Assembly: GCA_944390195.1 (NCBI GenBank)
Contig: CALXOZ010000002.1
Span: 14,380 to 78,379, forward strand
Reading direction: 5' to 3'
Length of the DNA stretch: 64,000 nt
From: an uncultured Alphaproteobacteria bacterium
Lineage (GTDB): Bacteria; Pseudomonadota; Alphaproteobacteria; CAAGCB01; CAG-977
Part shown: one piece after another, positions 8,573 to 64,000 of the stretch
How the letters are laid out: every line of letters begins with the position of its first letter
Position numbering within the stretch: the first letter of the stretch is position 1
Notes under the pieces: model-generated
Told to the model about the DNA's origin: nothing
The model's input: only the letters and a program-made list of their open reading frames with translations
The model's database searches: none
Made by a program: the position numbers and the translations under genes

Positions 8573-8595
8573 GTCTTTATTATTATAATAAAGAC
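8573..8595. terminator. AT-rich perfect palindrome between convergent surE and an 86-aa gene (possible bidirectional terminator)
   Basis: gtctttattattataataaagac forms a 10-bp stem. There is no strong U-tract. Confidence 0.35.
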
Positions 8596-8674: not shown

Positions 8675-8935
8675 TCAGTCTTCCAATTTCATACGCAGAA
8701 AACGCATGAAATCCGCTTTGTCATAAGGGGGATCGAATTTTTCCAACGCCTCATCAACGGCTTTGTTGATTTCGCGTTCGGAGGCATTATCATAAGTCAT
8801 CTTTAATTGGTTGACCAGTTGTTCTCTTTGAGATTCTTGATCAGGCGAAAAAGAATTCTGATCAATATTATTTTGTTGTTGTTTTTGTTGAATTTTTTGT
8901 TGAGCTTCTTCCAACCAAGACATACACCCCTCCAT
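8675..8935 (-). CDS. hypothetical small acidic protein (last gene of the hydF transcript)
   Basis: 86 aa ORF with Gln-rich and acidic composition. It sits tightly downstream of the 95-aa gene (4-nt gap). No recognisable family. Confidence 0.4.
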   Translation of the reverse strand: MEGCMSWLEEAQQKIQQKQQQNNIDQNSFSPDQESQREQLVNQLKMTYDNASEREINKAVDEALEKFDPPYDKADFMRFLRMKLED

Positions 8936-8939
8936 TGTT

Positions 8940-9227
8940 TTAAGGTGTCAATTCCATTCCGGTGTAATAACATTGCCGTGTATCAATATCTCTTTCTTTG
9001 ATTTCATTTAAAGCGGCTTCTCGGATATGCTTATGTCTCCAATTTTTAGTCCCTTGGCATAAATCTTTCAAGGGAGCCTTTTGCGCCCATTCTTTTGCCT
9101 CAATCGGTAGTGCGTATTCTTTTTCATAAAAAGGTTGAAGGGTTGACGGGTCGTTGTGGCCGCAACAGGCAAGCAGACAGCAAGAAGCTACAAAAAGAGT
9201 GTTTTTTAAAAGAATATTTTGACTCAT
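8940..9227 (-). CDS. hypothetical small Cys-rich lipoprotein/secreted protein
   Basis: 95 aa. Signal peptide with lipobox-like LLAC|C and 6 Cys. The start overlaps the hydF stop (ATGA), implying translational coupling. Confidence 0.5.
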   Translation of the reverse strand: MSQNILLKNTLFVASCCLLACCGHNDPSTLQPFYEKEYALPIEAKEWAQKAPLKDLCQGTKNWRHKHIREAALNEIKERDIDTRQCYYTGMELTP

Positions 9228-10419
9228 AGGTACATCTCAAACGGTTTGATAACGCGATCCAAGACCCCCTGCATGGCGGAAAGGGTCATTCCGAAGTTTG
9301 TAACAGGGACATGATTACGCTGGCATTCATGAATTCTCCGTAAAGTTTCCAATCGTGACAGCATACACCCCCCACAGTGAATAACAAGTTTAAATTGATT
9401 AAGATTTTCAGGAAAGTCCGTTCCTGCCGACCATTCAAAAATAATATTCTTGTTCAGAACTTTTTTAATGACGGCGGGAATTTTTTTTCGTGCAATGTCA
9501 TCGTCTTGGACATGGTGAGAACAAGCTTCAGCAATCAAGACACGATCATTGTCCTTGAGAAGTTGCAATTGTTTCGCCCCATCGTAAAAAGATTTGAGAT
9601 CTCCTTTATAACGGGCGAACAAGGTTGAAAAAGTCGTTAAAGGGACGGATTGTGGAACAACGGTATCAACCTGTCGTATCAATTGAGAATCCGTAATGAC
9701 CAAAGACGGCGGGTTTTTGAGATTTTCTAAGATATTTAAAAAATCGGAATGATTCTGAACGACATACGCATAAGCGTGCGCATCCAAGATGTCTCTGATG
9801 ACCTGGACTTGAGGCAGGATCAATCGCCCTTTCGGCGCGGAAGAATCAATAGGAGCGATACAAACGACTGTTTGGTTTTCTTTTATCAGGTCTCGAACCA
9901 GATCCGGATGAGGTTTGAGATGCTTGGATAAGACGTTTTTGATTAAAGTTTTTAATCCGTCGATATTTTGGTGGTTTAAAGCGGAAACGCGAATGGACGG
10001 GAAAGACGGGGATTCAGATGGATTTAAGCTGTTTTTATCACTTTTATTAAAGACGACAATAAAGGGGATTTTTAAATCGTCGAACTTTTTGATTAAATCC
10101 AGTTCATGTGTTTGGATTCCCGTTTCGTCGACAACCAATAAAGCGATATCGACTTTGTTAAGGATTTTTTTTGTGGCGGCGATTCTCAAAGATCCGATTT
10201 CTGCAGTGTCATCTATGCCGGCGGTATCAAAGAAAGTAACCGGACCGACTGGGATTAATTCATAAATTTTTGAAACGGCGTCGGTTGTCGTTCCGGGAGT
10301 GTCGGAAACGATTGAAACCTGTTGATTGCACATAGCGTTTAACAAAGAAGATTTTCCGGCGTTTCTTCTGCCAAACAAGCCAATATTGATCCGTTCGCCA
10401 CGAGGTGCTGTCTGCATGA
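9224..10419 (-). CDS. hydF: [FeFe]-hydrogenase maturation GTPase HydF-like
   Basis: G1 'GRRNAGKSS', G3 'DTAG', G4 'NKSD'. The C-terminal 'CSHH-(about 45 aa)-HCGGC' matches the HydF FeS-binding motif CxHx44-53HCxxC. Start taken at the second ATG (MQTAPRG…) with an AAAGGA RBS; the ORF track extends to 10444. Confidence 0.75.
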
Positions 10420-10529
10420 TAAATCCTTTAAAAAAAAGAATCACTTTTCTCTTTCTTTATACCTTTTTTTAGCTTTTATCTGAAAAAATATTTTCAAATA
10501 AATTTTTTATTTTTCAGGTGTAGTTTAAT

Positions 10530-11465
10530 TTGATTAAAAATAAATATATAAAGTCTGTTTTTGCATATGGGGCAATATTTTGTTTTTTGACAGGAATGTC
10601 CGATTCCGTAATGGCGGGTGCTTTTACCGATCCGGCAGACAATGCCTATTCGTTGAAAAAAGTTTTCACCCGTCCTTATTTGCAAAATACTCCGATTCCA
10701 AAAGTGTGGCAGGTTGATGCATCTTCTCCAAATTTCAAAGGGGCTCTGCTGGATTCTCTAACACCGCAAACACAAACGGAATTGCAACTGGACTCTTTGT
10801 TACGCGAACTTGATGCTTTGGATCGTCAGAACGATTATCGGAATATGGCGGTTGTTTCACCTTTTTTTGATATGAAAGCCGTTACCCGTCTTTTAAATGA
10901 AATGGTTCCTGTCGTGGAACAGGTTCAAAGGGAAACGTTGTCCGATTTAAAAGAAGTGGAAAAACGGTCGGAAAGATATCAACAAGAAAGTTTGAAGACG
11001 GAAGAAACACAATTCAATCAGTCGTTGGTTGATTTGTCTTCTTTTTTCGCTTCTTTGAGTGAAACGGCTCGTATGGACGTGGAAATGGATTTTTTGGAAA
11101 AATCGCTTGAAGATACTTGTGAAACACAGATGCTTTTCGATTTGAACAATTCGTTTTTGTCCGAAAACATTTTAAATAAAGCCGAAAATATCCATTTGTC
11201 GGAAACTGAAGATGTGCAAATACGCAACCAGACAGAAGAAATTTTTTATTCGTTGTTGATTAACGATATGATGGATCTGTCAACGGGAATAGGGACTTTC
11301 GAACAAGATAGCTCCTTTTTTGCACCGGATGATAATAAAAATATTTCAAAATCCGCCTCTTTGCTTGACAGAACGAATAAAACTGATCAAATTCAAAATG
11401 ATGATCCTGCATCAAAAAAACAATCTTTATTTAAAAAGCTGGAAAAATTTTTAAAAAAGAAGTAA
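10530..11465 (+). CDS. hypothetical secreted acidic protein
   Basis: 311 aa. With the TTG start there is a signal peptide (KNKYIKSVFAYGAIFCFLTGMSDSVMA|GA). The mature part is acidic and low-complexity. Located 18 bp upstream of the TolC-like gene. Confidence 0.5.
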   Translation: MIKNKYIKSVFAYGAIFCFLTGMSDSVMAGAFTDPADNAYSLKKVFTRPYLQNTPIPKVWQVDASSPNFKGALLDSLTPQTQTELQLDSLLRELDALDRQNDYRNMAVVSPFFDMKAVTRLLNEMVPVVEQVQRETLSDLKEVEKRSERYQQESLKTEETQFNQSLVDLSSFFASLSETARMDVEMDFLEKSLEDTCETQMLFDLNNSFLSENILNKAENIHLSETEDVQIRNQTEEIFYSLLINDMMDLSTGIGTFEQDSSFFAPDDNKNISKSASLLDRTNKTDQIQNDDPASKKQSLFKKLEKFLKKK

Positions 11466-11482
11466 AAACTTAAGGACGTAAG

Positions 11483-13525
11483 ATGAAGAAAAAGTTGGAT
11501 ACCTTTTTAATGCAAAAGAAAATTTTGAAAAGAACGTCCTTTTTGACGGCGTCGGCAATAGCCTTATTCATAGGGGCTTGTACCGTAGAACCCGAACCGT
11601 TGAGCGATTGGGAGCGTGCCGTCCGTGTTGATCAGGATATTCAGGAAATGTTCCAAGATCAACGTTCTCAAAGGATCGTAGAACCGTTGACCTTATATGA
11701 TGCTATGGCAAGGGCTTTGAAGTATAACTTGAAAGCTCGATTGAAAATGATGCAAACGGCTTTGGCGACAAAACAATATGACAAAGTAACTTTGGATATG
11801 TTGCCACAAGTTTCTCTTGGCGCCGGTTATTCGGGCAGAAACAATTATGAAGCCGTCGTTTCAAAATCCATGCAAAACGGGCTTGTATCTCAAGATGCCG
11901 AAGCTTATAGCGCAAAAACGCACGGTGTCGCAAATGCTCAGATCAGTTGGAACATTTTGGATTTCGGCGTCAGCTATTATCAGGCAAAGCAAGACGCAAA
12001 CAACATCTTGATCGCCAAAGAACAAAGACGTAAACAAGTCCAGTCTTTGTTGCAGGAAGTACGGGCTGCTTATTGGCGGGCTCTGGCTGCTGAAAGGTTG
12101 TCCGGAAAAATCGATGATTTGATGGAAGAAGCGACATTCGTTCTGGAAAAATTACGTTCAACGGAAAACCAGACAAGCGGGGATTCAACTGTTTTGTTGA
12201 ATTATCAAATGGCGTTGATGGAAACAATGCGCGATTTGAGCGAAATGAAAAAAGAGTTGATGATCTCGCGTGAACAATTGGCCTCTTTGATGAATCTCAA
12301 ACCGGGAACACGCTACAGGTTGGTCGGACCGGAAAATGGTAATTTCGTGTTGCCGGAAATCAGATCCAGTCTGGATCGCTTGGAATGGCTCGCCTTGATG
12401 AACCGTCCGGAATTAAGAGAAGAAGATTATAAACTTCAAAACACTCGTATTGCTGCAAAAAAGGCTTTATTAAAATTATTGCCCGGTCTGAACCTTTCCA
12501 TATCGGCAAATTATGATTCCGATGACTTCCTCGCCAATAATTCATGGTTGGAAGCGGCGGCTATGTTAGGGTGGAATTTGTTAAATCCTGCTCAGATGCA
12601 ACGTACGCTGGCGTATGGCGAAGTCAAAGAAGCCGTCGATAATTTAAATCGGCAGGTCATTGCTATGACGGTTTTGACGCAAACGCATGTCGGATGGGGT
12701 AGATACCAAACAGCCAAAGAAACTTATCAATTAAGCGTCGAAATTGCCGATGTTGCCCGTAAGTTGGCAGAACAAGCGTCCGATAACGTAAAAACAGATG
12801 TTTTAGCTGAGGCGGAAAAAATATCCTCTGCCGCCAGAGCTCTGTTCGCCGAATTGCGTTCATCAATGAATTTCGCCGAATTGCAAGACGCGACAGGTTA
12901 TGTGTTTGTAACTTTGGGGTTGGATCCTTTACCGGAAAACTTCGCTTCCAGTGATATAAATTCAATTTCTTCAGCTTTGCAACGTGTCATGACGGCTTGG
13001 GATATGGGGCGTTTCACAAACGAAGATTATCCTCGTTTGCCACCTGTTCCAAGGCATAGACCGCCAGTATATATTGATGCGAAGTTCCCGGCTAAAAAGG
13101 TTACGGAAAATACACGCTTTATTGTAACAATAGATCCGAATGTCTTTGCAGAAGCCGATTTAGGGCAAGATGTCGTTTATACCGCAACTTTGAGAAATGG
13201 AGCAAAGTTGCCGTCTTGGTTGTTCTTTGATTCAAAAACGCTCACCTTGTCCGGTAGACCTCCTGCAAATTCGGAAGGAATATATGAAATAAAGATAATG
13301 GCTAAAAATAAAAAGAAAATGAGTGCCTATATCTTTATGACCATTCAGGTTCAACGCGGATACAAGACAATTCTGGATATGAGAGGGGCGGAACCCGATT
13401 CTATTGTGACAGTCATTCAACGTTGCGACGGATCCGAATTGTGTGAAGATTATCAAAATATCCGTCAAATTGATATGTTCCCGGAACCTGTAACGGTTTC
13501 TCCGTTACCAATGCCGAAAAAGTAA
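11483..13525 (+). CDS. TolC/NodT-family outer-membrane efflux lipoprotein with C-terminal cadherin-like (He_PIG/putative Ig) domain
   Basis: 680 aa. Lipobox FIGAC. Residues about 60-480 carry outer-membrane-factor repeats (LTLYDAMARALKYNL…, …LLPGLNLS…). The C-terminal about 200 aa contain 'VYTATLRNGAKLPSWLFFDSKTLTLSGRPPANSEGIYEIKIMAKN', which matches the He_PIG/dystroglycan-type cadherin-like consensus (PSWLxFDxxTxTLSGxP…GxYxIxI). Confidence 0.75.
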   Translation: MKKKLDTFLMQKKILKRTSFLTASAIALFIGACTVEPEPLSDWERAVRVDQDIQEMFQDQRSQRIVEPLTLYDAMARALKYNLKARLKMMQTALATKQYDKVTLDMLPQVSLGAGYSGRNNYEAVVSKSMQNGLVSQDAEAYSAKTHGVANAQISWNILDFGVSYYQAKQDANNILIAKEQRRKQVQSLLQEVRAAYWRALAAERLSGKIDDLMEEATFVLEKLRSTENQTSGDSTVLLNYQMALMETMRDLSEMKKELMISREQLASLMNLKPGTRYRLVGPENGNFVLPEIRSSLDRLEWLALMNRPELREEDYKLQNTRIAAKKALLKLLPGLNLSISANYDSDDFLANNSWLEAAAMLGWNLLNPAQMQRTLAYGEVKEAVDNLNRQVIAMTVLTQTHVGWGRYQTAKETYQLSVEIADVARKLAEQASDNVKTDVLAEAEKISSAARALFAELRSSMNFAELQDATGYVFVTLGLDPLPENFASSDINSISSALQRVMTAWDMGRFTNEDYPRLPPVPRHRPPVYIDAKFPAKKVTENTRFIVTIDPNVFAEADLGQDVVYTATLRNGAKLPSWLFFDSKTLTLSGRPPANSEGIYEIKIMAKNKKKMSAYIFMTIQVQRGYKTILDMRGAEPDSIVTVIQRCDGSELCEDYQNIRQIDMFPEPVTVSPLPMPKK

Positions 13526-13590: not shown

Positions 13591-13603
13591 ATGAAAATTC
13601 ACT

Positions 13604-13788
13604 AATTCTAAAAAATATTGTGTATTTTGGGGTATCTCGATAACCTATAATAGATCTGTCTCAATCAATCGCTTCTTTTCGTTGAAAGGAAAACATTCCG
13701 CTTAATAATGTCAAGCCAGCTTGCCTTTCTATTGTGATAAAACCGAACCGATCTGTGTATAAACTCGTTTAAATTCCTTCCACAGCTT
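13604..13788. repeat. composite repeat copy 1 (unit A 106 bp directly abutting unit B 76 bp)
   Basis: A (aattctaaaaaatattgtgtattttggggtatctcgataacctataatagatctgtc…ccgcttaataat) is identical to 14568-14673. B (aagccagcttgcctttctattgtgataaaaccgaaccgatctgtgtataaactcgtttaaattccttccacagctt) is about 97% identical to 14826-14901. Confidence 0.9.
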
Positions 13789-14567
13789 TCAGATTTATTG
13801 TATATTCCCGCTTGAGGGGCGAAGGACATTTTTTTGATTCAAGTGTTTTCAGATTTATAAGTATATGAAATTCCGGTTGAGAAAGCGGTTTTCCATTTTT
13901 TTAAAGATAATGAAAATTAAACTTTCTTTGTTTTGATGCTTATAAAAAACTATTAATCTGCCAGTTTTTTTGAAATTCTTTTATTGTGAAAGCCTGTCAT
14001 ATGCCAAAATAAAAAATTTAAATTGAAATGCTGTAAACTTGGTTTATGACTTTTAGTGCTTCAGATCCTGAGGACTGAAATTCTTACAGGATATTGGTAT
14101 TAAATCACTATTTGAAATATTTTTGATTCTATATCCCTATATCAAAATCACATGGATATAACATGATAATAAAATATTTCACACAATAAATTGTATGTAA
14201 AAAATTTTAAAGACAATTTGTTTGAATGAAGCTTTATTCAAAAATATAAATCTTTTTAAGAAAGTTATTAATAAAAGAAAACATTCCTTATAAAACGTTA
14301 GTTTCTGTTTTGTGTATAACTTCCCATATTGCCATCTAGACTTGAATAGCGTTTTATTTGGCTGGATGCGTAATTTGTTACTTATAACCGTAAACAGAAA
14401 AATGTCTGATGTAGTATGTTATTCCCAACTGTTTTATATATATAAGGTATCTGGCGATGATTTATGTTTTTGTCTGCCGTATCTTTAAATACCATTGCTT
14501 TAAAACCGTTTATTGCGATATTTAAAATTCATGTTCTATTCATAGATCATCAAACTTATATTTCAGA

Positions 14568-14901
14568 AATTCTAAAAAATATTGTGTATTTTGGGGTATC
14601 TCGATAACCTATAATAGATCTGTCTCAATCAATCGCTTCTTTTCGTTGAAAGGAAAACATTCCGCTTAATAATCAACTTTAGTATGTCGTTATTTGCATC
14701 GCTGAATTTGATCGCAAGCTTTTTCCATAAAAGCGTTCTAAGACAGCGCCGACGTTCTTCTTGCAAAGACGGCGATGTATTTGGACGATCTGTCTTGAGT
14801 CTTCCATGAAAAGGTTAAGCCCGCTTGCCTTTCTATTGTGATAAAACCGAACCGATCTGTGTATAAACTCGTTTAAATTCCTTCCACAGCTTCCAGAAAG
14901 C
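14568..14901. repeat. composite repeat copy 2 (unit A and unit B split by a 152-bp unique insert)
   Basis: Same A and B units as 13604-13788, with 14674-14825 inserted between them. Both copies lie inside a 2.3-kb gene-free AT-rich block. Confidence 0.9.
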
Positions 14902-27235: not shown

Positions 27236-28453
27236 TTACCTGTTTTTGTTATTTTTCAAAAGCGTCAAAAGAGCGGGGTGAACTTTTCTATCCGAAGTGT
27301 CTTTCAAAGATCTGTTTTGATCGGAAGCATTTTCAGAAGCAGCACGTCTTCCATACATACTGCCTCTGGACGGAAGATCGACATAACTTTTATCTTCCTG
27401 TTTTCCGGTTAAATTTTTTCTGGATTGGAAGAAAAGGTCGGCTGCATTTTTTGTTTCGGTTGATATTCCGCACATTTTTGGGTCATCCAATATATTGGGG
27501 TTATCTTTAAAATAGCATTGACCGTTTGATGTTTGGCAAAACATTTCGACGATTTCTTTGGAAGACATATTTCCTTCAAAAGGAAGCTCTTCAAATGTTT
27601 TCAATTGATCGTCTTTTTTTTGGAAAGCGATGCTTGTCAAATTAAAATAGAGATAATCTTCTTCATAGATATCAACTGTATTTTTTTGTTCAAACCATCC
27701 TTTAAAGGCGTCTTGCATTGTTTTGCTTTGATTTTCAATGACTTTTTCAACAGGCGCATCTTTTGACGGGGCAGAAATGGCATTTGCGATTAAAGGATAA
27801 GAGGAACAGAATTTTTGCCAGACTTTGGAATCTCTTGTTGTAGCTCTGATTTCTAAAGCGACTTGTGCGGCGGTAGCTTGAGCATCAGCTTCGGCGGCGC
27901 GATTCAACTTGACCTCGGTAGCAAGATCTTTCTGGCACAACATATCGGGAAGCCCGCGAGAATGTTGATAGACGTGTCTGACTTCATGTGCCAAAGTTGT
28001 TTTTAATTTTGCATCACTGCAACACGGGTTGATCATGACAATATTTTTTGTCGGATCGAAATACCCGTAACCGGTATCCTGATAATCGAAGCCTATTTTT
28101 GTGCCGTGTTCAGCAGCGTTTTGTAGCAAACTTCTTCCGGTTTCCGAATTTTTTGCAATGGAATTGATCAAAGCGGTCAGACGTTTTTTTTCATTTTTCG
28201 ATCCTGTCAATTCAATATCAACGACAGGAGGTTCATTTTTATAAAAACCGCGGACGAAAGGGGAGGAATAAAGTGTATGAAAAAAAGATTTTTTCATTTC
28301 ATGTTTTTTTTGTTCGATTTTCATCAGAGTTTCTATAAGATGACTATTTCCTTCAATATTTTGAGGGGATGAAAAAATTTGATTAAGCATGGAAGGATTT
28401 TTTGGTTTTCCTTGTGTTTTATTTTCTTGATGAATTTGATCGAAAAAAGACAT
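27236..28453 (-). CDS. hypothetical protein with HExxHxxQ zinc-metallopeptidase-like motif (DUF4157-like) and about 240-aa unknown C-terminal region
   Basis: 405 aa. '…GYGYFDPTKNIVMINP…TTLAHEVRHVYQHSRG' resembles the DUF4157 pattern (G..F/Y…I.……LLAHELTHVVQ). No signal peptide. The C-terminal region is unrecognised. Confidence 0.5.
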   Translation of the reverse strand: MSFFDQIHQENKTQGKPKNPSMLNQIFSSPQNIEGNSHLIETLMKIEQKKHEMKKSFFHTLYSSPFVRGFYKNEPPVVDIELTGSKNEKKRLTALINSIAKNSETGRSLLQNAAEHGTKIGFDYQDTGYGYFDPTKNIVMINPCCSDAKLKTTLAHEVRHVYQHSRGLPDMLCQKDLATEVKLNRAAEADAQATAAQVALEIRATTRDSKVWQKFCSSYPLIANAISAPSKDAPVEKVIENQSKTMQDAFKGWFEQKNTVDIYEEDYLYFNLTSIAFQKKDDQLKTFEELPFEGNMSSKEIVEMFCQTSNGQCYFKDNPNILDDPKMCGISTETKNAADLFFQSRKNLTGKQEDKSYVDLPSRGSMYGRRAASENASDQNRSLKDTSDRKVHPALLTLLKNNKNR

Positions 28454-32859: not shown

Positions 32860-33020
32860 GGCTGAAGAAAAAACGTAAAAAGAGGTTGAAGAAACAATTC
32901 AACTGCGTTAAAGTTAAGCCCGCAAATCGGGGGAGTTTTTCTTGACGTCTGATTTGCCGATGTCGGGAAAACATTCCCTTCTATTTAAATCTTTCATTTT
33001 ATTTCTTGGAGAAAAAATCC

Positions 33021-36578
<3,558 letters not shown>

Positions 36579-55625: not shown

Positions 55626-57707
55626 TTATTTTAATAACATTTTAAAATCGACGACGACAGCACGGTCTTTTGTTACCAGAACTGGATTTCCGTCAATGGA
55701 TTTTATTTCCGGAATTTCCAGAACCAATTGTTGAACCTTCTTTAACGTTTCAGCCAAAGGTCCGACCGCTTTAGGTTCTTCTCCTCTAACACCATTCAAA
55801 ATCGTTCCGATTTTTGTTTCTTTGATCATTGCGTCAAAATCATCAGCAGGAAGAATACGCATTGTCGTATCCCGCATGACTTCCGTATAGATGCCGCCCG
55901 TTCCAAAGATCATGACACGACCGAAATTTTTATCAGAATTAACACCGATAATCGTTTCAGAAGCCTTGACGATCATTTCTTGGATAAGGACACTGGCGTT
56001 TTTCAATTGGAACTTGGCAATTGTCGCCGTCAATTCATCAAACGCCGCATTGAACTTCGCTTCGTCATCGATGTTCAAATAAATTCCCTTCATTTCCGTT
56101 TTATGCAAAGCGTCAGGAGCGGAAAGCTTCAACACGACAGGAGAGGGGAAAAGCTTTTTACAAAATGCCAATGCTTCATTTTTATCCGTAAAGTTACCGC
56201 ATTTCGGATAGTCGATTCCGTAATGATCCATGATTTTGTTCATTGTTGTTTGCGGTAAGGAAGCTAAACCGTCATTTACGGCTTTTTTAATTTCCTCTTT
56301 AATTTCGGACGGGACGTCATGACATTCGACTTTTACATCAGGCATTCCTCTGAACGCCATTTGGGCTTTCATCAAACCGAGCAAGCGGATACAATCTGTC
56401 GGATAATCATATGCAAGGATATTTTGAGCTTTTAACATATTAACAGCTTCTCTAACGCGTTCTCCGCCGATAAAGGAGCAGAAAATGTTAATATCTTTAA
56501 ATTGAGGAGCCAGTTTGATAATAGCTTCAGCCGTTTCTTTGGGTTCTGTCGACATTTGAGGCGTCAATAGAACGATGATGTTTTTATATTCACCAGATTC
56601 GCATAAAACGCGCAAAGCGTTTTCATAACGATCCGCTTTTGCGTCTCCGACGACATCAATCGGGTTTCCGACGGAAGCTTCCGGCGTTAAAACGGCGCGT
56701 AATTTTTCGATTGTTTTTTCACTTGGGCGAGCCAAATCCAGATGAGCATCTTCGCATAAATCAGAAGACAAAACACCGACGCCACCTGCATTTGTCAATA
56801 TTCCAACAGAACCGGAAAAATCGGTATGGTTGACATGTTGCAACAATTCCAAAGCTCCGAACAATTCGCGAGTTGTATAAACTTGAATGGCGCCGCTACG
56901 TTGCAAAGCAATTTCCAAAACGCGGTAATTGGGAGCCAGAGACCCTGTATGTGACAAGCTGGCCGCTTGAGCTTTGCTGGATTTTCCGGGTTCCATGATA
57001 ACACATGGTTTCGTTTTGCTGACTTCTTTCAAGATACGCAAGAACTCTTGCCCTTTTTTCAGTCCTTCCAGATAGAAAACGAAAGCTTTTGTGTTCGGAT
57101 CGTGTTGAATGGCTTCCAACAAAGAAGCTTCGTTCAAATCCGCTTTATTCCCGATGGAGATGAAATGAGAAAATCCGATTCCCTTTTCTTCAGCCCAGTC
57201 GAGAATGGCGCTGCAATAGGCTCCCGACTGTGAAATGAAAGCGACATTTCCTTGTAAGGGGAAACAGGGAGCAAAACTTGCATTTAATTTATCGAAAGTG
57301 GAAATATGTCCCAAGCAGTTCGGACCCAACAAATTAATATTGTTATCCAAACATTTTTTTGCGATTTTCAATTCCAGTTCTTTATTTCCAGCTTCTCCGA
57401 ACCCTGCAGTGATGATACTGATATTTTTAGCTTTGTTAACAATTGCATCATCGACGGCGGCTTCGCAAAAACGAGCGGGAACCAATAAGACGACAAGGTC
57501 TACGGGATTGGGAATATCGCGTACGGAAGCAAAACATTTTTTACCTTTGAGTTCTTGTCCGGCCAACTTCGGATTGACACCGTAAAGATCTCCTTGGAAA
57601 CCGGCTTCAATCAGATTTTTAAAAACAACGGCTCCCAATTTTGATTCGTCAGCGGAAACACCGACAACCGCAATGGAATGCGGATTGAAAAATGTACTTA
57701 AAGACAT
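55626..57707 (-). CDS. acetate--CoA ligase (ADP-forming), fused alpha-beta subunits (Acd / NDP-forming acyl-CoA synthetase)
   Basis: About 694 aa. N-terminal CoA-binding 'IAVVGVSADESKLG', succinyl-CoA-synthetase-like flavodoxin and ligase-CoA domains, and a C-terminal ATP-grasp part. Start chosen at the second ATG after AAGGGA. Confidence 0.88.
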   Translation of the reverse strand: MSLSTFFNPHSIAVVGVSADESKLGAVVFKNLIEAGFQGDLYGVNPKLAGQELKGKKCFASVRDIPNPVDLVVLLVPARFCEAAVDDAIVNKAKNISIITAGFGEAGNKELELKIAKKCLDNNINLLGPNCLGHISTFDKLNASFAPCFPLQGNVAFISQSGAYCSAILDWAEEKGIGFSHFISIGNKADLNEASLLEAIQHDPNTKAFVFYLEGLKKGQEFLRILKEVSKTKPCVIMEPGKSSKAQAASLSHTGSLAPNYRVLEIALQRSGAIQVYTTRELFGALELLQHVNHTDFSGSVGILTNAGGVGVLSSDLCEDAHLDLARPSEKTIEKLRAVLTPEASVGNPIDVVGDAKADRYENALRVLCESGEYKNIIVLLTPQMSTEPKETAEAIIKLAPQFKDINIFCSFIGGERVREAVNMLKAQNILAYDYPTDCIRLLGLMKAQMAFRGMPDVKVECHDVPSEIKEEIKKAVNDGLASLPQTTMNKIMDHYGIDYPKCGNFTDKNEALAFCKKLFPSPVVLKLSAPDALHKTEMKGIYLNIDDEAKFNAAFDELTATIAKFQLKNASVLIQEMIVKASETIIGVNSDKNFGRVMIFGTGGIYTEVMRDTTMRILPADDFDAMIKETKIGTILNGVRGEEPKAVGPLAETLKKVQQLVLEIPEIKSIDGNPVLVTKDRAVVVDFKMLLK

Positions 57708-58028
57708 CATTTTCCCTTTCAAAAACTTTAAGTGTAACTGGGTTGTAATATGAAATGGTTATACACGAAAAGTCAAGGTAATTTTGAGCTTTTTCATAAT
57801 ATGAAACAATAAAAAATTCAGATGTTTTTTTTGGCGTATGGACAAATGGAAAATGCTCAGAGGAACATAACCATTTAAATAATGAAAAAAGTGAAAAATG
57901 ATAAATAACTAATTGATTTTTATAAAAATTGATTTAAAAAACGCTTTTAAAAAAAGAAAAGCTTTTTTTTCCGTCTTTTTCGGTGTAAAAAGAGGATACT
58001 ATTGTTATTGATAATGTGAGATATGGAA

Positions 58029-61334: not shown

Positions 61335-61839
61335 GCGCATAGGAGTATATCCCGGTACATTTGACCCGATCACCTACGGTCATATGAATTTAGTCGAACG
61401 GGCGGCGAGCTTGGTTGATAAGCTGATTATAGGAGTGGCGGTAAATCAACATAAAAATTCGCTTTTCAGTTTGCAGGACCGTTTGGATATGACGGAAGAG
61501 GCGGTTGACAAGTTTCGCAAAAAAAGTGTTATTATCGTAAAACCATTGATAGATACATTGTTGGTTAATTTTGCGAAAGAAAATAATGCTGAAGTCATTT
61601 TTCGCGGGTTGAGAGCCGTTTCAGATTTTGAATATGAGTTTAAAATGTGCGTTATGAACCGGCGTTTACAAGAAAGCATAGAAACGGTTTTTTTGATGGC
61701 TTCGGAAAAACATCAGTTTGTTTCTTCTGTTTTTGTGAAAGAAATTTGTAAGCTTGGCGGCGATATTTCCACTTTTGTAACGCCGGCAGTAGGTGAAAAA
61801 CTGATATCCCGATATAAAGAATTAGGAGAAATCAAATGA
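61327..61839 (+). CDS. coaD: phosphopantetheine adenylyltransferase
   Basis: '[21 protein letters not shown]' (T/HxGH nucleotidyltransferase motif). Overlaps the gyrA stop. Confidence 0.9.
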
Positions 61840-62306
61840 GTTCGAATGATCAAAATACATTATTGTTAGAATTGAAAAACGGTGTTGTTGAAATTCAAAT
61901 GCGTCCGGATTTAGCTCCTAATCATGTAGCTAGAATTAAAGAATTAGTTCGTGACGGTTTTTATGACGGATTGAAATTTCATCGAGTGATTGAAGGTTTT
62001 ATGGCTCAGACAGGTTGTCCGAAAGGGACAGGGACAGGGGGAAGCGGTAAAAAACTTAAAGCGGAATTTTCCAAAGAACCTCATGTTCGCGGGACGTGTT
62101 CCATGGCAAGAGCGATGGATATTAACAGCGCCGACAGTCAATTTTTCATTTGTTTTGATGATTGTCCATGGTTGGATCAACAATACACCGTTTGGGGAAA
62201 AGTAACAAAAGGAATGGAGTATGTTGACCAAATCAAAAAGGGAAGAGGCGATAATGGTATGGTAAACGATCCGGATGTCATTGTATCACTGAAATTGGTA
62301 GAGTAA
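61836..62306 (+). CDS. ppiB: peptidyl-prolyl cis-trans isomerase, cyclophilin type
   Basis: 'FHRVIEGFMAQTGCPKGTGTGGSG' and 'GTCSMARAMDINSADSQFFICF'. Confidence 0.9.
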   Translation: MSSNDQNTLLLELKNGVVEIQMRPDLAPNHVARIKELVRDGFYDGLKFHRVIEGFMAQTGCPKGTGTGGSGKKLKAEFSKEPHVRGTCSMARAMDINSADSQFFICFDDCPWLDQQYTVWGKVTKGMEYVDQIKKGRGDNGMVNDPDVIVSLKLVE

Positions 62307-62597
62307 TAAGGAATAGGGTGAAAGAAAAATTGTTCAATTTTTGTTTTAGATGTGTAAGAAAGCAGTCTTTTCCTTAATTGTTTCGCAACGCAAAAGAAAA
62401 TATCAATGAGAGAAGGAAAATTGAATTGATATCGGAAAGAAAACAAGAATATGAAAGTAACAAATAATAAAAAATAGCTGAAGGGGTCAGTAACGTTTTT
62501 TTTGTGTTGAATAAAAATAAAGATAACAAGATGAAAAGAGGATCAAAGCAATTTTTTATAAGTTTTTTATGAATAAGTCAGAGTTCTATAGTTTTAA

Positions 62598-62627
62598 AAA
62601 CGCCTGTTTGATCAGGCGTTTTTTTTA
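62598..62627 (+). terminator. rho-independent terminator of the ssb–gyrA–coaD–ppiB transcript
   Basis: aacgcctg-tttgat-caggcgtt followed by T9. Confidence 0.8.
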
Positions 62628-63615
62628 TTGCAGAGGATAAATTCATATAATTTTGATTTTTAATTACCTAAGCCAGATATGAAGAAACTTTTTTTTTGAA
62701 GAGCATCAAAGAATAAGAAATTATTCGTTATTGGGTTGATCCAATAAATTTCAAATGACGATTAAGTAAGTTTGGCTAAGGAATATCCAAAAAAAAGAAT
62801 AAAGATTAGAAAAGAAAACTTCCGCCGGATCAGGGGGAAAAAAGAGAAGGATGCTGAAGTTATCGAAAGCCAGATTTTAGAGATCTTGTAAATTTATCAT
62901 GAAATTTGTTTGTAAATTTATTTTGTTTTATTAGCGAAAGCCGCAAAAATGTCTGTTATTTTACGTTAATAACAAAAAAAACAAAAGTCGCATAATACAT
63001 CTTAATAAAAATGTTGATAATTTTTTAATAAGTTTGATAACAGTATTTTTTATTGTTTGTTTCCAATATCTTACTCATGTGCAATTTTTTTATGATATTA
63101 TATGATTGTCGCATAATGTATATTATGTTAAATAAGAAAAAAGTTATCAAACGAATAACAAAATGTTATATATTGAAATTAAAAAAAATTACAGCATGAA
63201 GATGATTTTGCAACATATTGAAATTTAATGATTTTTTTTCAGAAATAAAAAAATAGGCTCAAAATTAAAAAAAACTCTAAAAAGATGTCTTGATTGCTTT
63301 AAAAACAGAATAAAAAAAATTTTCTTTGTTAACACCCTTACCAAATCGAAAGAACAGATTTATAAAATTTTATGAGTGGATAGTATCCGGTCGAATACTG
63401 GAATTTATTTTATAAATAAATCAAGTTTTGATAAAAATATTTCCTTTTAAGTTTCAGCTACAGATAATGAATATGTTTCGGGTACGGATGGCGAAACAGT
63501 CACGATAAATACGAAAGAAACGATTTTAAAGTTGCCTTTTTAAAATCGTTTCACATCATTTATTTCAATATTTGTAAAGAGCTATAATCTATTTTATATT
63601 CGCCCTGCTCTTGTT

Positions 63616-64000
63616 TTAAATTTCAATTTCCATACCATCATATCCCGGTTCAATTCCGACAGGTAAAGAATTACATAAAGATTGGTAATCCAGATTAATA
63701 GACATATGCGTTAAAATAGTTCTTTTTGGTTTGATGATTTTTACCCATTCCAAGACACGATTTATAGAGGCATGACTAGGATGGTCTTTATCCGATAAAC
63801 AGCCGACAACCCACGTATCAATTCCTTTTAAAATCGAAAGCGCAGATTCATATAAATGAACGACATCGGTTGAATAACCGAATTTATTGATTCTGAATCC
63901 TAAACTTGTCGTCCATTCATGATCTTGTGTAAAAGGAATAATTTTTATCCCTTTTATATAAAAAGGTTCTCCCGGTTTGATCAAGTTAGGTTCCAGCCAT
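63616..64000 (-). CDS. MBL-fold metallo-hydrolase, C-terminal part (5' end beyond window)
   Basis: ORF open to the window end, with stop at 63616. The C-terminal region is typical of beta-lactamase-fold hydrolases (…WVVGCLSDKDHPSHASINRVLEW…). Confidence 0.55.
   Translation of the reverse strand, partial: WLEPNLIKPGEPFYIKGIKIIPFTQDHEWTTSLGFRINKFGYSTDVVHLYESALSILKGIDTWVVGCLSDKDHPSHASINRVLEWVKIIKPKRTILTHMSINLDYQSLCNSLPVGIEPGYDGMEIEI

Follow-up and report, generated by a model that had tools for sequence, protein, structure and literature searches.

The hydF gene analysed here is probably canonical, with its partner genes hydA, hydE and hydG located elsewhere in the genome, and the small acidic protein encoded downstream of it (ORF3) is probably a HydF-linked accessory. 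We assign this combined reading a probability of roughly 75%. The gene lies in a 64-kb stretch of DNA, the whole of which is referred to here as the window, where it would head a short conserved operon, hydF-ORF2-ORF3, near serS and apart from other hyd genes. In the established pathway, HydF accepts the [2Fe] precursor that two radical-SAM enzymes, HydG and HydE, produce, and passes it on to apo-HydA.

The three open reading frames of the operon are arranged head to tail on the minus strand (9224-10444, 8940-9227 and 8675-8935), as reported in a preliminary description of this DNA. With the start codons preferred below, the features of the locus are:

9224..10417, minus strand: hydF, on the basis of TIGR03918, Pfam domains, PDB alignment, invariant motifs and rough dN/dS
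8940..9227, minus strand: ORF2, a predicted lipoprotein of 95 aa with a signal peptide, lipobox Cys22 and a ~60-aa helical domain containing two invariant Cys
8675..8923, minus strand: ORF3, an acidic protein of 82 aa (pI 4.6), putatively cytoplasmic and helical, behind GGAGG
10418..10529, no strand assigned: AT-rich, divergent intergenic region, the presumed hydF-ORF2-ORF3 promoter, from gene layout only
8573..8595, no strand assigned: perfect AT-rich palindrome with 11-nt arms, GTCTTTATTAT-A-ATAATAAAGAC, in the space where surE and ORF3 converge

HydF and its relatives

The hydF frame encodes 397 aa from an ATG at 10417, or 406 aa from a GTG at 10444. The ATG is more likely to be the start, because it is used in public gene calls and conserved in homologues and because the alignment with solved structures runs from residue 6 onward. 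Against the NCBIfam equivalog TIGR03918, the protein scored 511.6 bits, as compared to a cutoff of 325.55, over profile positions 2-392 of 392. Pfam detected an N-terminal P-loop GTPase domain (MMR_HSR1, 1.2e-22). The search of the C-terminal domains that the preliminary description had proposed returned both HydF_dimer (PF18128, 1.4e-36, profile positions 1-99 of 99) and HydF_tetramer (PF18133, 4.4e-46, profile positions 2-118 of 118). Three solved HydF structures, PDB 5LAD, 3QQ5 and 5KH0, aligned with the window HydF from end to end (E 1e-88 to 1e-90). The TIGR03918 score, the two HydF-specific domains and the full-length structure match together rule out a Der/Era-like GTPase.

A protein search that returned the best 120 matches, each of at least 51% identity, placed the window HydF in a tight group of ~55 clusters at 64-76% identity, hereafter the clade. 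Those of its members that bear a name are called "MAG: Alphaproteobacteria bacterium". Outside the clade, the best of the matches listed reach 55% (among them Desulfovibrionaceae and Shewanella). In an all-against-all comparison, nearly all of the outgroup HydFs scored higher against one another than against the clade, and P0101/P0111 represented a sister HydF lineage. A public HydF (P0001), which differs from the window protein at one residue and is encoded on contigs of metagenomes assembled at ENA, served as its stand-in in the locus look-up; a scan of genome contigs with HydF gave two loci. Relatives are already labelled HydF by the NCBI pipeline. Some of their contigs are named after human-gut or rumen samples, and the host is an uncultured gut or rumen alphaproteobacterium.

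The GTPase motifs of the window protein are GRRNAGKSS (G1), GTTTD (G2), DTAG (G3) and NKSD (G4). Its [4Fe-4S] ligand motif, CxHx(46-53)HCxxC, reads C299-S-H-H ... H347-C-G-G-C, which bears out the C-terminal FeS motif (CSHH…HCGGC) noted earlier. In an alignment of 55 clade clusters of 394-421 aa, the G1-G4 motifs and the FeS ligands were unchanged, and the hydF frame was unbroken and full length in all of them. Rough dN/dS values of ~0.1-0.3 for hydF, ORF2 and ORF3, with synonymous sites saturated, indicate that all three genes are likely to be under purifying selection. On this sequence evidence, the window gene is a true, intact, full-length HydF and an ordinary member of a known family, and its predicted role is the canonical one, namely to hydrolyse GTP and to bind the [2Fe] precursor and transfer it.

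The HydFs of Thermotoga maritima, T. neapolitana and Thermosipho melanesiensis (5LAD, 3QQ5, 5KH0) have a three-domain architecture in common with the window HydF (GTPase, dimerisation and tetramerisation/[4Fe-4S]), and likewise the G1-G4 and CxH...HCxxC motifs. Unlike these proteins, the window HydF is at most 55-59% identical to HydFs outside its own alphaproteobacterial clade, among the matches listed, and its gene is not beside hydE or hydG but is followed by lineage-specific small genes.

In a further lineage (L031-L034), Q replaces H ahead of CxxC (IIQCGAC) and CSHN replaces CSHH. These sequences suggest a different fourth ligand of the [4Fe-4S] cluster. The same proteins carry a Lys-rich C-terminal extension of ~20 aa.

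The operon and its two small proteins

The hydF stop codon and the ORF2 start codon overlap as ATGA (CTATGAGT), as previously described, and ORF3 starts 16 nt past the ORF2 stop codon. The three genes are probably co-transcribed. For ORF3, the preliminary description had given a length of 86 aa, which corresponds to a start at 8935. The start at 8923 (MSWL...), giving 82 aa, is most likely the correct one, because GGAGG lies 7 nt upstream of it, because public gene calls begin there and because it is conserved in all homologues; the acidic character of the protein was confirmed, and its length is revised accordingly.

Upstream of the operon, 10418-10529 separates hydF from the oppositely oriented genes for a 311-aa secreted protein and an OEP/He_PIG lipoprotein. 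No sigma-70-like site was detected there by a consensus scan. These two divergent genes (10530-13525, plus strand) encode, in order, the 311-aa protein, which matched no known family, and a lipoprotein of 680 aa in which a TolC-like OEP domain is fused to a He_PIG Ig domain. They keep their position beside hydF in most relatives. Across the clade, the OEP protein is 67-83% identical and the 311-aa protein is fast-evolving (26-40%).

At the other end, the palindrome at 8573-8595 may, tentatively, serve as a bidirectional terminator. Its stem is not G+C-rich, and a G+C-based terminator scan made no call there. In L007, L015, L038 and L039, a TPR-repeat gene of ~230 aa follows right after the hydF operon in the same orientation, downstream of ORF3 or ORF2. 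The window does not contain this gene, and the convergent surE comes after ORF3 instead.

ORF2 is a predicted exported lipoprotein restricted to the clade. Its family comprised 57 clusters among 5.8 billion proteins, every one of them from these alphaproteobacteria, and many share contigs with HydF clusters. The N-termini show a positive N-region, a hydrophobic core and the lipobox [LAS][ASTF][GAS]C with an invariant Cys (39/39 aligned homologues), and are followed by a variable linker and a mature domain of ~60 aa that is ~85% conserved. The description of ORF2 as lipoprotein-like was therefore apt. The accompanying term "Cys-rich" was not, since the only conserved Cys residues in the alignment are that of the lipobox, C57 and C86. 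The AlphaFold model of ORF2 is all-helical, with pLDDT 93-98 over residues 31-80. ORF2 had no Pfam, NCBIfam, PDB-sequence or PDB-fold match. An identity as the HydB small subunit was considered and dropped because of the lipoprotein signal and the lack of a family match. Since ORF2 would be exported and HydF cytoplasmic, the two are predicted to be unable to contact each other.

ORF3 belongs to a family of 30 clusters at 50% identity, all of 79-89 aa, and has no signal peptide. The alignment showed an N-terminal MSWLEEA, a core Y-x-NAT-x-REI-x-KA-x-D and a C-terminal KLED as conserved motifs. The predicted structure consists of an N-terminal helix and a three-helix bundle (pLDDT 82-90). No curated Pfam or NCBIfam family scored above threshold and no PDB sequence or fold matched; both small partners are in this respect uncharacterised, as had been said of them.

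The preliminary description had also proposed a look at the two small ORFs beside hydF in other genomes. In all clade loci examined, ORF2 immediately followed hydF, the two genes overlapping by 4-17 nt or standing 1 nt apart, and the hydF-ORF2 coupling followed by ORF3 recurred in relatives with 64-76% HydF identity. In L015, different genes occupy both flanks and hydF-ORF2-ORF3 are still together. No ORF3 was seen in one subclade (L009, L013 and L038) up to 10 kb from hydF, and hydF can thus do without it as a neighbour.

Outside the clade, the sister lineage L016 has the order serS / TM1266-like gene / hydF / ORF3 homologue, without ORF2, and its ORF3 homologue is 39% identical. In the third lineage (L031-L034), the order is serS / hydF / ORF3, with HydF 47-49% and SerS ~62% identical to their window counterparts. 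The ORF3 homologue begins 0-1 nt past hydF in these two lineages, the L016 pair having no gap. A scan of JGI metagenomes with the ORF3 alignment gave 18 loci, and hydF (or hydF-ORF2) was immediately upstream of ORF3 in 14/14 of those with enough upstream sequence. L031-L034 are among these metagenome loci. Because ORF3 adjoins hydF outside the clade too and ORF2 is limited to the clade, ORF3 is, to judge from these gene orders, the older partner of hydF, and ORF2 was inserted between the two in one clade.

ORF3 resembles the TM1266-like protein (PF21699) of L011 and L016 in its size (~80 aa), in having no assigned role and in being encoded tight against hydF. However, there is no BLAST similarity between them, neither ORF2 nor ORF3 matched the PF21699 profile, and the TM1266-like gene lies upstream of hydF whereas that of ORF3 lies downstream. 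L016 holds both genes, and thus ORF3 is not a replacement for the TM1266-like protein. No TM1266-like ORF was found in the window or the clade loci, although one precedes hydF in L016, and this absence counts against the favoured reading.

It could be argued that HydF is canonical and that ORF2 and ORF3 merely share its transcript in a compact genome, with no role in maturation. This would agree with the predicted export of ORF2, with the loss of ORF3 beside hydF in one subclade and with the fact that neither protein matches a known hyd accessory family. Moreover, serS has stayed beside hydF to the same degree with no functional tie between them, so that in this region, which rearranges slowly, a conserved neighbourhood carries less weight than it seems to. 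On the other hand, in none of the 14 testable loci did ORF3 lie anywhere but right behind hydF, a range that covers three lineages and HydF identities down to 47%; the hydF-ORF3 block has been inverted relative to serS, and relocated in L015, as one unit; and a gap or overlap of 0-17 nt has been maintained. We regard a chance association as unlikely and infer a physical or functional link between HydF and ORF3.

Gene content of the window and the absence of other hyd genes

Pfam confirmed both metabolic enzymes named in the preliminary description, a PFOR at 33006-36578 and an ADP-forming acetyl-CoA synthetase at 55626-57722. The 30 large ORFs scanned were of housekeeping and anaerobic-metabolism types and further included argS, tatABC, serS, surE and pntAB, a SUF system (sufBCD, sufS and one Fe-S assembly protein), a CcrM-type methylase carrying a RAMA domain, relA/spoT, parC and gyrA. 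The presence of PFOR, ADP-forming acetyl-CoA synthetase and SUF supports a fermentative, ferredoxin-generating context. Rfam and tRNA scans of the window found nothing.

Several other observations were made in the window. A ~200-nt element occurs twice, at 13598-13793 and 14562-14897, with 95-98% identity, the second copy being split by ~137 nt. Both copies lie between the OEP/He_PIG gene and the gene for a 232-aa protein, where 2.3 kb at ~32% G+C contain few ORFs. The element had no Rfam match and may represent either a repeated non-coding RNA or a small mobile element. A gene for a DUF6782 putative metallopeptidase is located at 27236-28453 on the minus strand; its paralogues cluster around hydF in relatives, including three in tandem upstream of hydF in L015 (5864-9847). 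Toward the right-hand end of the window (61800-64000), G+C falls to ~30%, and public contigs of the same species (L035) continue past this end with genes for a metallo-beta-lactamase-fold protein, tatD and holB.

The earlier statement that hydA, hydE and hydG are absent from the window agrees with our results. The six-frame translation of the 64 kb contained no HydA H-cluster motifs, no window ORF of at least 100 aa contained the CX3CX2C radical-SAM motif, and Pfam scans of the 30 large ORFs found none of the three genes. There were no other hyd genes in the ~2.3 kb past the right-hand end, and hydA, hydE and hydG were likewise not seen in ~25 related loci over the 10 kb flanking hydF on each side. 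A standard hyd gene cluster, that is, a radical-SAM maturase or H-cluster gene beside hydF, is absent from the window and from the related loci. In an outgroup alphaproteobacterium (L011), hydE is the only hyd gene close to hydF, and its other neighbours there include TM1266-like and aspartase-like genes.

A comparable separation has been documented in bacteria that possess [FeFe] hydrogenases. In Clostridium acetogens with active enzymes, the locus tags of hydE, hydF and hydG are thousands apart (PMC9431212, Table 3). Similarly, the gut alphaproteobacteria CAG:239 and CAG:977 have HydE, HydF, HydG and two types of HydA with distant accession numbers (PMC4967309, Table 1). As seen around the window hydF, hydF is far from hydE, hydG and hydA in both cases despite the hydrogenases, and the setting of the CAG genomes is akin to that of the window, an anaerobic gut organism with PFOR. 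In contrast, those genomes were searched whole, whereas the window hydF is judged from 64 kb. The CAG:239 and CAG:977 HydFs were not among the best 120 matches to the window HydF (all of at least 51% identity) and thus belong to a different HydF lineage. In a survey of 1,466 genomes, HydF was found in 200, of which 189 had HydE, 179 HydG and 191 HydA (PMC3226654, Table 3).

Because hydE, hydF and hydG are known to be scattered in hydrogenase-bearing bacteria (PMC9431212, PMC4967309), their absence from 64 kb does not make this hydF an orphan, as the preliminary description had called it. It is most likely that hydA, hydE and hydG lie elsewhere on the chromosome.

A true orphan would nevertheless be conceivable if hydA, hydE and hydG had been lost or were never present, in which case HydF and ORF3 might form a GTP-dependent Fe-S scaffold or carrier for some other client. 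Consistent with this idea, no hyd gene besides hydF was found in the 64 kb or in the ~25 neighbourhoods of 10 kb either side, and a lineage-specific ORF3 is present in place of the TM1266-like, aspartase-like or hydE neighbours of L011. The clade HydF is on a long branch, with at most 55-59% identity outside the clade among the matches listed, and ~5-10% of HydF genomes in the older survey were without detectable HydE or HydG (PMC3226654). However, the neighbourhoods represent a minor fraction of each genome, all residues required for the canonical role are invariant, and the TIGR03918 score is far over its cutoff. The sister lineage retains a TM1266-like hyd accessory beside hydF, and PFOR requires a sink for reduced ferredoxin. 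To our knowledge, no function of HydF other than hydrogenase maturation is on record. Ordinary dispersal of the hyd genes is favoured because of the documented scatter, the base rate in the survey, the invariant residues, the TM1266-like gene in the sister lineage and the need of PFOR for a sink, and an orphan HydF appears improbable.

Still less probable is the specific proposal that, in a lineage without hydA, hydE and hydG, HydF and a dedicated 80-aa ORF3 serve some client that is not an [FeFe] hydrogenase, as an Fe-S scaffold driven by GTP. For the repurposing of HydF as a scaffold, which the preliminary description had raised, the sequence offers no hint; the GTPase and FeS-ligand residues are those found throughout the 55 clade clusters.

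Finally, a decaying, non-functional hydF left behind after loss of the hydrogenase, for which the absence of hyd neighbours is the sole point, is very improbable and is effectively refuted by the invariant catalytic and ligand residues in an intact, full-length frame across the clade, by dN/dS of ~0.1-0.3 and by the conservation of hydF between lineages whose synonymous sites are saturated.

Proposed roles and significance

Under the favoured reading of a canonical HydF with dispersed partner genes, HydF would be a GTPase of the cytoplasm, with its [4Fe-4S] site in the C-terminal part, and would carry out its canonical role in maturation. ORF3 is most likely an accessory that binds HydF, perhaps as an adaptor or by controlling the loading of the scaffold or the release from it. 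ORF2 would be an exported, disulfide-stabilised lipoprotein that is co-expressed with HydF but located in another compartment. ORF3 is a plausible candidate for a HydF accessory in one alphaproteobacterial group, and the hydF-ORF3 pairing appears to be undescribed, as it is represented by no curated family and no mention of it was found in the literature searched.

The window hydF fits earlier reports of gut alphaproteobacteria that have the machinery for [FeFe] hydrogenases with its genes scattered. If whole genomes of this group were in truth to hold no hydA, hydE or hydG, this would be a much more interesting finding, and a HydF scaffold for something other than a hydrogenase, if real, would be the first such role for HydF. 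The steps by which the precursor is handed over from HydG and HydE to HydF and then to HydA are incompletely understood, and ORF3, if it is a true HydF accessory, would be a new component of the maturation pathway.
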